A stretch of 64,000 nt of DNA, taken from positions 160,001-224,000 of the forward strand of contig JBDRCX010000006.1 of NCBI GenBank assembly GCA_043821365.1, read 5' to 3'. Source of the DNA: Candidatus Micrarchaeota archaeon. GTDB taxonomy: Archaea; Micrarchaeota; Micrarchaeia; Anstonellales; Bilamarchaeaceae. Made by a program: the position numbers and the translations under genes. Of this stretch, positions 49,899 to 54,768 are shown one piece after another (the first letter of the stretch is position 1; the number at the start of each line of letters is the position of its first letter). The notes below the pieces were generated by a model. That model did no database searches, was not told the origin of the DNA, and worked only from the letters and a program-made list of their open reading frames with translations.

Positions 49899-49937
49899 AT
49901 GTGTGCGATCAGAAAAACATGCCCAGTTAAACAAAGA

Positions 49938-49966
49938 GTTTTTGGGCGCTTTTTACCAAAAAGCGC
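49938..49966 (+). repeat. REP-like hairpin element, copy 2
   Basis: GTTTTTGG-GCGC-TTTTT-ACC-AAAAA-GCGC. Confidence 0.75.
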
Positions 49967-49978
49967 AGGTGAATAAAA

Positions 49979-54212: not shown

Positions 54213-54345
54213 AAAAAGATTTGGGCCCGCGCGGAATCGAACCGCGTGTCTCCTGCATTTTGAATCGCCAAAATAGCGACCCCGTTTTGGGCCGCCTGTT
54301 ACCACAAGGCGGAATGTCAAGCAGGCGTCTTAACCATTGTCAGTA

Positions 54346-54395
54346 CAAGCTTCTTACAATCAAAAATAACAAGGTTAAAAAGCTTGACCAAAAAC
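54346..54395 (-). repeat. REP-like element, degenerate copy inside the tRNA intron
   Basis: Minus strand GTTTTTGG-TCAAGC-TTTTT, long loop, then AAGCTTG. Confidence 0.5.
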
Positions 54396-54443
54396 CAAAA
54401 TGATGGTTTTTAGATAACCTTTTTAGTACACCCTAAACAATCA

Positions 54444-54477
54444 GTTTTTGGGTGCACCTTTTTCCTAAAAAGGTGCA
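54444..54477 (+). repeat. REP-like hairpin element, copy 3, inside the tRNA intron
   Basis: GTTTTTGG-G-TGCACC-TTTTT-CCT-AAAAA-GGTGCA. Confidence 0.75.
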
Positions 54478-54525
54478 TCGACTACGGGCCCTAGGACTAA
54501 TTCATATGCCAATAGATTTTATATA

Positions 54526-54768
54526 TTATCCATCTGTGGAAAAAACGTATGTTTTTTCCCAAACAGCTTGTTTTTGTGTTGAAGCGATTGCTTGTTTTGC
54601 TAAATTTCTAACTGTATACGAAGGATCGTGTTCTGATATATAATTAAGAGAAAGTTTCGCCAAGTTGTTGTTTTGTACAAGTTGTTTAAGTTGCTTTATG
54701 GCTTCTTTTCTCCTCATTATGCTTTTACTAGATAATTTTTTTAGCAAATATGCAATATCATCATTCAT
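54526..54768 (-). CDS. Small HEAT-repeat-like protein
   Basis: RRKEAIKQL and DPSYTVRNLAKQAI. Confidence 0.7.
   Translation of the reverse strand: MNDDIAYLLKKLSSKSIMRRKEAIKQLKQLVQNNNLAKLSLNYISEHDPSYTVRNLAKQAIASTQKQAVWEKTYVFSTDG

Follow-up and report, generated by a model that had tools for sequence, protein, structure and literature searches.

How the introns of archaeal tRNA genes arrive is an open question, and reviews of the subject have asked for snapshots of intron insertion events (PMC4033280). It is raised by a tRNA-Val(GAC) gene of a Micrarchaeota archaeon (GCA_043821365.1; 1.2 Mb in six contigs, 87% complete, 36% G+C), located in the stretch of DNA analysed here, which comprises 64,000 nt of contig JBDRCX010000006.1 (positions 160,001-224,000) and is referred to below as the window. 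A preliminary description of this DNA had proposed that the gene carries a long, non-canonical intron in its D region, born or expanded from a mobile repeat that tRNA splicing had rendered harmless. Could such a gene still supply a tRNA, where would its intron be cut, and from what was the intron built? We consider it probable, reading from the sequence and its relatives, that this is a functional, single-copy tRNA-Val(GAC) gene with two BHB introns, one of 140 nt at position 15/16 and another of 57 nt at 37/38.

A tRNA-Val(GAC) gene in three exons

The gene runs from 54491 to 54222 on the minus strand of the window and is composed of three exons and two introns (Table 1). Removal of both inserts leaves a 73-nt sequence with a regular cloverleaf that ARAGORN calls as tRNA-Val(GAC), in agreement with the identity first proposed. 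It has a perfect 7-bp acceptor stem, U8, A14, the GG of the D-loop and a 5-bp anticodon stem, and its 3' half supplies the T-loop UUCGAUU and discriminator A; CCA is not encoded. A motif-guided solver ranked the pair of introns at 15/16 and 37/38 first for this gene. The preliminary description had placed a 13-nt exon (GGGCCCGTAGTCG, 54491-54479) 140 nt before the rest of the gene, with which it restores a perfect 7-bp acceptor stem; the distance and the stem stand, but exon 1 is most likely 15 nt long, and the remainder, treated there as one piece, contains the 57-nt second intron at 37/38, which went unmentioned. All exons lie in order on one strand within 270 nt, and not at separate loci or in permuted order as in split or permuted genes.

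Table 1. Features of the tRNA-Val(GAC) locus and of a related module copy, in window coordinates
Feature	Position	Strand	Remarks
TATA-like box ATAATATATAAAAT, putative promoter	54516..54529	-	25-38 nt upstream of G1; read from sequence
Exon 1, tRNA nt 1-15	54477..54491	-	acceptor 5' strand, U8 A9, D-stem 5' strand G10-G13, A14, U15
Intron 1, 140 nt, position 15/16	54337..54476	-	three stem-loops and a free 3' tail; register from orthologues
Module copy, 5' end of intron 1	54428..54477	-	11-bp hairpin 54477-54453, then CCAAAAAC and TGATTGTTTAG; nhmmer E=3.2e-9
Degenerate opposed half-copy of module, AAAAAGCTTG-A-CCAAAAAC on plus strand	54377..54398	+	nhmmer E=2.2, 8.5 bits, not significant
H3 segment UGAC of intron 1, partner of G10-G13 (54482-54479)	54339..54342	-	bulges A14-U15|G and A-A|U16; orthologue pairing
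Exon 2, tRNA nt 16-37	54315..54336	-	remaining D-arm, anticodon stem 5' strand, loop to A37, anticodon GAC
Intron 2, 57 nt, canonical 37/38	54258..54314	-	central helix UUGA/UCAA atop anticodon stem; CCGCC...GGCGG hairpin, then CCCAAAAC
Exon 3, tRNA nt 38-73	54222..54257	-	anticodon stem 3' strand, variable loop AGACA, T-arm, acceptor 3' strand, discriminator A
T5 tract, putative terminator	54213..54217	-	5 nt past discriminator
Related module copy outside tRNA genes, in vapB-vapC spacer	49899..49978	+	spacer with ~68-nt insert; insert missing in nine relatives

Boxes of A/T similar to the one in Table 1 precede most other tRNA genes of the genome at approximately -40 to -25, and T4-T7 tracts lie 3' of most of them. 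In its unspliced form the gene is missed by standard tools: default ARAGORN and Rfam at the gathering threshold report zero tRNAs in the 64-kb window, and at a permissive threshold the Rfam tRNA model gives it 15 bits (E=4.7). With introns allowed, ARAGORN run on the whole genome again missed the gene and mis-assigned several others. The genome yields only 18 tRNA hits above the Rfam cut-off, from which it follows that most of its tRNA genes are interrupted. An apparently essential gene is thus missed by default ARAGORN and Rfam, and valine decoding would seem incomplete in annotation. The locus recurs at 99.7% identity, with intron 1 identical, in public sequencing data from two independent runs, which rules out an artefact of assembly. 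When metagenome contigs were scanned for strain-level variants by exact pattern, no match was returned, and in two Logan contigs intron 1 is the same and does not vary in length.

Register and geometry of the D-region intron

The intron in the D region most likely sits at 15/16, two bases from the 13/14 junction of the preliminary description, so far as can be judged by comparing orthologous genes; the mature junction would then most likely read GUCGAU-UGGUUAAG and the D-loop AUUGGUUAA. We assembled Val(GAC) orthologues from the genus (24 genomes) and from a small number of more distant genomes. The D-loop insert is absent in 13, where the D-loops have AUC, ACU or AAU before GG, and present at the same site in 11, at lengths from 19 to 140 nt, which answers the earlier suggestion that relatives be searched for absent or shorter introns (those in relatives measure 19-54 nt). 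Among the 11 intron-bearing orthologues, the helix that G10-G13 forms with intron positions -6 to -3 has 43 of its 44 cells paired (97.7%), by means of seven intronic tetramers (UGAC, GGAC, UGAU, CGAC, CGUC, CGAU, CGGC) and including one compensatory change, from G13-C to C13-G in G003. Slid controls, with the 3' partner shifted, paired in 12-66% of cells. Only 3-8% of the tetramers within each intron are able to pair fully with the D-stem strand, and the conserved placement of H3 is therefore not due to chance.

The same intron stretch, ACUGACAA, permits both pairings, UGAC for 15/16 and ACUG for 13/14, and the two registers would produce mature tRNAs differing at nt 15 alone (A or U). It is improbable, in our estimation, that this functional gene has its D-region intron cut at 13/14, with U8-U11 paired to ACUG and a mature A15. 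The UAGU/ACUG helix described earlier does exist here, with 4 bp, the solver scores of the two registers are nearly equal (-0.8 against -0.5), and A15 is found in the genome's other two Val tRNAs; but across the 11 intron-bearing orthologues only 58.5% of its cells are paired, it does not hold in either of the closest relatives, G015 and G024, the near-universal A14 is lost under this junction in G010, G011 and G047, and the genome's tRNA census revealed no other 13/14 intron. When the precursor was folded, the 15/16 constraint gave -101.4 kcal/mol and the 13/14 constraint -99.0 kcal/mol, against an unconstrained minimum of -104.7 kcal/mol; 15/16 is thus 2.4 kcal/mol better than 13/14 and 3.3 kcal/mol above the minimum, in whose structure its helix is absent, and the helix probabilities are 0.06 and 0.0003 respectively. 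It is on orthologue pairing and fold energy that 13/14 is rejected. Since both helices have 4 bp here, the choice of register depends on the relatives and on the modelled 2.4 kcal/mol. Registers 14/15 and 16/17 were also tried and discarded, with 0-2 bp.

Placing the intron at 15/16 also bears on the A15/A48 pair that had been flagged as atypical. Position 13/14 puts A15 opposite A48, whereas 15/16 gives U15-A48, as in G015 and G024. The U15-A48 combination is confined to this clade; other orthologues have C15/A48, U15/G48 or A15/U48, an unusual co-varying set (loci L027-L087, L109-L176).

A census of the genome's tRNA genes found an insert directly after nt 15, in the same layout, in at least six others: in the Gly(CCC), Asp(GUC), Asn(GUU), His(GUG) and Thr(GGU) genes, and a sixth in a tRNA gene at C6:418044, whose anticodon arm was incompletely parsed and of which only the 15/16 insert was used. 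These inserts are 17-88 nt long. The helix was itself a search criterion of the census, so that these genes show recurrence of the site and not independent support for the helix. The 140-nt intron is the longest of the parsed 15/16 introns; its size, which had been thought unusual, falls within that of the genome's 37/38 introns, which reach 178 nt.

As read from the sequence, both introns of the Val(GAC) gene have a 4-bp helix and two 3-nt bulges, with a predicted cut after the second bulge nucleotide. The motif of intron 1 has a GUCG/UGAC central helix with bulges AU|G and AA|U, and in that of intron 2 the anticodon stem runs into UUGA/UCAA, with bulges CA|U and AA|U, in the classical layout. 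Intron 2 has helix h in the form of the anticodon stem. Intron 1 departs from the strict hBHBh' form: nt 8-9 cannot pair with nt 17 onward, outer helix h is absent, and a local hairpin and a multiloop stand where h' would be. Without an outer helix, and with a local hairpin past the 5' bulge, the motif is of the relaxed kind (HBh'-like), as the preliminary description had it. Folded alone, intron 1 reaches a minimum of -44.2 kcal/mol (z=-5.19), with none of 200 shuffles folding as well, and its last 9 nt, including UGAC, are unpaired in that fold and free for G10-G13. We saw no C box (RUGAUGA) and no Rfam match below E=0.1 that would mark a C/D-box sRNA of the tRNA-Trp type in intron 1.

Processing enzymes, copy number and transcription

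The genome encodes the enzymes that processing of such a transcript would need. EndA is a 393-aa ORF (L090:1207-2388, minus strand) of which residues 5-393 align with residues 4-387 of PDB 4FZ2, the ARMAN-2 enzyme (E=3.5e-132), and this full-length homology, in one polypeptide of three units, points to the epsilon2 type. The ARMAN-2 epsilon2 endonuclease cleaves strict and relaxed motifs in vitro (Fujishima et al. 2011, PMC3239211), and epsilon2 structures are available (PDB 4FZ2, 9W2K; PMC3488258, PMC12397907). A gene for RtcB is also present. Its match (C6:673872-676544) is split into two parts, covering profile positions 23-50 and 45-426, by ~1.4 kb in one 910-aa frame, and the encoded protein looks like an intein-containing RtcB. 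A second EndA-like ORF of 163 aa (C6:480404-480895; L091:1291-1782, plus strand) resembles the alpha4-type subunit 1A79 of M. jannaschii (E=2.4e-9) and is 24% identical to the epsilon2 catalytic unit.

With these enzymes, transcription would start downstream of the TATA-like box, about 30 nt before G1, and end at the T5 tract past A73. In the precursor the acceptor and T arms would form, and G10-G13 would pair with the UGAC situated 3-6 nt from the 3' end of intron 1; the resulting 4-bp helix would present the bulges A14-U15|G and A-A|U16, with the module hairpin stacked past the 5' bulge in place of h' and with no outer helix h. The epsilon2-type endonuclease would cut both introns and RtcB would join the exons, whereupon the D-stem could form with A22-C25 and CCA be added.

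The preliminary description had allowed for an insertion-inactivated pseudogene accompanied by an intact Val(GAC) gene elsewhere. No second Val(GAC) gene was found in the 1.2 Mb of this 87% complete genome by exon-pattern and anticodon-arm searches: the only other Val-like exons are those of Val(UAC), at C6:290943, and Val(CAC), at C6:554193; every other hit of the anticodon-arm pattern is an AT-rich match in which no tRNA-like features are seen. The Val(CAC) gene (C6:554193 onward, plus strand) has a module-bearing 37/38 intron of its own and a second interruption within the T-loop. GUU and GUC make up 61% of the valine codons in long ORFs, and the gene described here is the sole decoder found for them. 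All four of its stems and its conserved nucleotides are intact and match those of the orthologues, the splice helix is maintained, the locus is conserved in other samples as noted above, and introns of like build occur in many tRNA genes of a genome with few spare tRNA copies. The gene is, judged on these features, very probably functional. That repeat insertions have inactivated it and its tRNA is no longer made we regard as quite improbable, even though the motif is relaxed and lacks the outer helix, the assembly is incomplete, and T5 tracts in the intron could stop transcription.

Premature termination at such tracts is a real concern. Four T5 tracts lie on the sense strand of intron 1 and are no shorter than the tracts 3' of tRNA genes. 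All module-bearing introns share T tracts, which suggests an unrecognised tolerance rather than a point against Val(GAC) alone. Sense-strand T5-T7 tracts are common within the tRNA introns of this genome, including those at positions 54258-54476 of the window. The same four tracts could be taken to mean that the gene is split into two transcripts joined in trans, a 15-nt piece with the hairpin ending at the T tracts and the remainder starting from an internal promoter, and tRNAs spliced in trans are known from Crenarchaeota and from other lineages of DPANN (PMC4033280, PMC3491384). The pieces are however colinear with a gap of just 140 nt, the last 50 nt of intron 1 showed no TATA-like box of the type that precedes other tRNA genes (TTTATAAA, TTTAAATA), and the 19-54-nt versions in relatives leave no room for a promoter, all of which makes joining in trans highly improbable. 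Splicing of one transcript in cis remains the reading that we prefer.

The hairpin module, the history of the intron and known systems

One base past the cleavage site, intron 1 starts with an 11-bp hairpin in the order stem, CUUUUU, AGG, AAAAAG, stem, followed by CCAAAAAC and UGAUUGUUUAG; the stem begins right past the 5' cleavage bulge. This hairpin with its flank belongs to a family of modules, of which 32 copies were found in the 1.2-Mb genome by pattern and 37 at E<=0.01 by an nhmmer profile built from 30 genomic copies. The outer stems differ among copies yet stay paired, and the many dispersed copies share a conserved core. The copy in intron 1 is the second-best profile match in the genome, which upholds the earlier view that the intron starts with a repeat hairpin. 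From the sequence context of each copy, about 60% lie in or adjoin tRNA genes, and within tRNA introns the hairpin typically opens with base 2 of the intron, the expected start of helix h'. Some tRNA introns hold two opposed copies, whose CCAAAAAC and GUUUUUGG are able to pair. Another copy (C6:734172-734191) abuts the 5' end (+1) of tRNA-Ala(GGC), and so lies in the leader and not within an intron.

Intron 1 had been described as ending with a second, opposed copy. What is found there is a degenerate half-copy (Table 1), internal to the intron at approximately 40-60 nt inside the 3' splice site, so that the 5' copy is the sole significant one and the two ends of intron 1 do not carry terminal inverted repeats. 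For the inner ~90 nt, the genome gave only chance matches of 12-17 nt, and a search of 41 related genomes returned nothing at E<=0.001. Over 43 nt, intron 2 shares 90.7% identity with an intron of the Thr(GGU) gene (C6:753919-753961), and its CCGCC/GGCGG hairpin with CCCAAAAC is a diverged member of the module family. Two bases of this hairpin differ between the genome and two other samples (L188, L189), with TTGT/AACA here and the canonical TTTT/AAAA there; both differences in the assembled genome break A-U pairs.

Was the intron born from the module, or did it grow? Synteny between the Val(GAC) gene and CTP synthase is kept in many relatives, and the relatives found through the neighbouring CTP synthase gene are all Candidatus Micrarchaeota or Micrarchaeia metagenome assemblies, in line with the phylum to which the preliminary description had referred. 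Identity of CTP synthase is highest with G024 (86%) and G015 (85%), and at most 81% with all others. The syntenic Val(GAC) genes of G024 and G015 have 15/16 introns of 53 and 50 nt, which start with the same kind of hairpin and end in CGAC-AA, and their upstream flanks are alignable with this genome. Because both of the closest relatives have an intron at this site, the intron is older than this species, and birth, the first of the two origins suggested earlier, can be set aside. The sequence comparison is better fitted by the second, expansion of an existing intron of ~50 nt built on a mobile hairpin module, unless the introns of the relatives shrank; the extra ~90 nt would either have been added here or been lost there. 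Intron 1 would on the preferred account be an enlarged ~50-nt intron that opens with a hairpin-and-CCAAAAAC module concentrated in tRNA introns and occasionally inserting elsewhere.

The 15/16 site is filled in nine of 23 genes across the genus, and in two more distant genomes, with inserts of 19 and 28 nt; this patchy occupancy implies repeated gain, repeated loss, or both. The divergence between the species (72-86% for CTP synthase) is too large for a recent event to be caught. One candidate snapshot of recent gain, the 28-nt intron of Bin_091 against three intron-less genomes with identical exons, was rejected, since at 72-73% identity of pyrG the identical exons reflect conservation only. 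The 37/38 introns of the Val(GAC) genes are unrelated between G015 (L037) and G024 (L038), at 217 and 86 nt, and intron 2 of this genome is common to the more distant G006 and G054, which together suggest fast turnover of introns.

Evidence that the module moves comes from the spacer between vapB and vapC (Table 1). The spacer is 80 nt long here, including the ~68-nt stretch with the module, which is absent from the orthologous spacer of G024, G015, G044, G014, G002, G046, G012, G018 and G001; in the syntenic operon of these nine relatives, the two closest among them, vapB and vapC are ~10-30 nt apart. The filled spacer here and the empty one in nine relatives amount to an insertion at the DNA level in this lineage, and the module evidently inserts into DNA, as had been supposed of the repeat. 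At the tRNA-Val 15/16 site, which is likewise filled or empty among orthologues, loss is equally possible. The insert is antisense to the operon and ends just before the ribosome-binding site of vapC; its flanks are too diverged to define a target-site duplication.

A link with IS200/IS605 elements was considered and rejected: the genome has a lone Y1 transposase gene of this type (TnpA; C3:96623-97072, L093:1465-1914), whose flanking hairpins are GC-rich, unlike the A/T-loop module, and give no hit to the module profile. Fragments of TnpB occur near other tRNA genes, such as the TnpB-like fragment at C6:553800-553997 between tRNA-Val(CAC) and tRNA-Gln(UUG), and no link from them to the module was found. 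We put forward, tentatively and with somewhat more doubt than confidence, that the module is a tiny non-autonomous mobile element of Micrarchaeota which survives mainly where an endonuclease of relaxed specificity excises its copies, that its insertions create and enlarge tRNA introns, and that its hairpin supplies the helix next to the 5' bulge. Were this so, the Val(GAC) series of 0, 19, 28, 40, 50 and 140 nt at one site would, together with the vapB-vapC insertion, represent snapshots of intron gain and growth.

Multi-intron tRNA genes and the epsilon2 enzyme are already known for the phylum. Candidatus Micrarchaeum acidiphilum ARMAN-2 resembles this organism in its full-length, three-unit endonuclease and in its many tRNA genes with multiple, non-canonical introns of relaxed motif; the introns tested in PMC3239211 are 13 and 25 nt long, with no shared repeat described, whereas those considered here reach 140-178 nt and are built from a hairpin-and-CCAAAAAC module that also occurs outside tRNA genes. 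Our searches of the literature found no description of the module family or of a link to intron growth, and this modular family of introns is apparently undescribed so far. With REP and MITE-like repeats (PMC3184786, PMC3733652) the module has in common that it is a short hairpin in many copies, conserved in its flank and variable but still paired in its stems, and that it occurs in intergenic spacers, sometimes as opposed pairs; it differs in being concentrated in tRNA introns next to splice sites, and in having neither a definable target-site duplication nor a cognate transposase that we could find.

Two further systems concern the spread of introns themselves. The intron transposition of Thermoproteales (Fujishima et al. 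2010, as related in PMC4090602 and PMC4033280) is similar in that near-identical segments recur across tRNA genes and positions. As far as those accounts describe it, that case belongs to another lineage and endonuclease type and concerns whole introns, whereas the unit here is a short hairpin module, one copy of which shows insertion polymorphism at a non-tRNA site. A census of tRNA introns in Asgard archaea (bioRxiv 10.64898/2026.10.13.758758) likewise describes inserts hidden from annotation, often in the D-loop, with repeated gains and losses at the same positions, at sites that permit BHB splicing. That census presents no general route of arrival and almost no intron families across isotypes, while here the shared module is obvious: one tRNA position holds, across related genomes, nothing, a bare hairpin or up to 140 nt, and its building block is a repeat that has inserted into the spacer of protein genes, which makes it a concrete and testable candidate for the gain and growth of tRNA introns.
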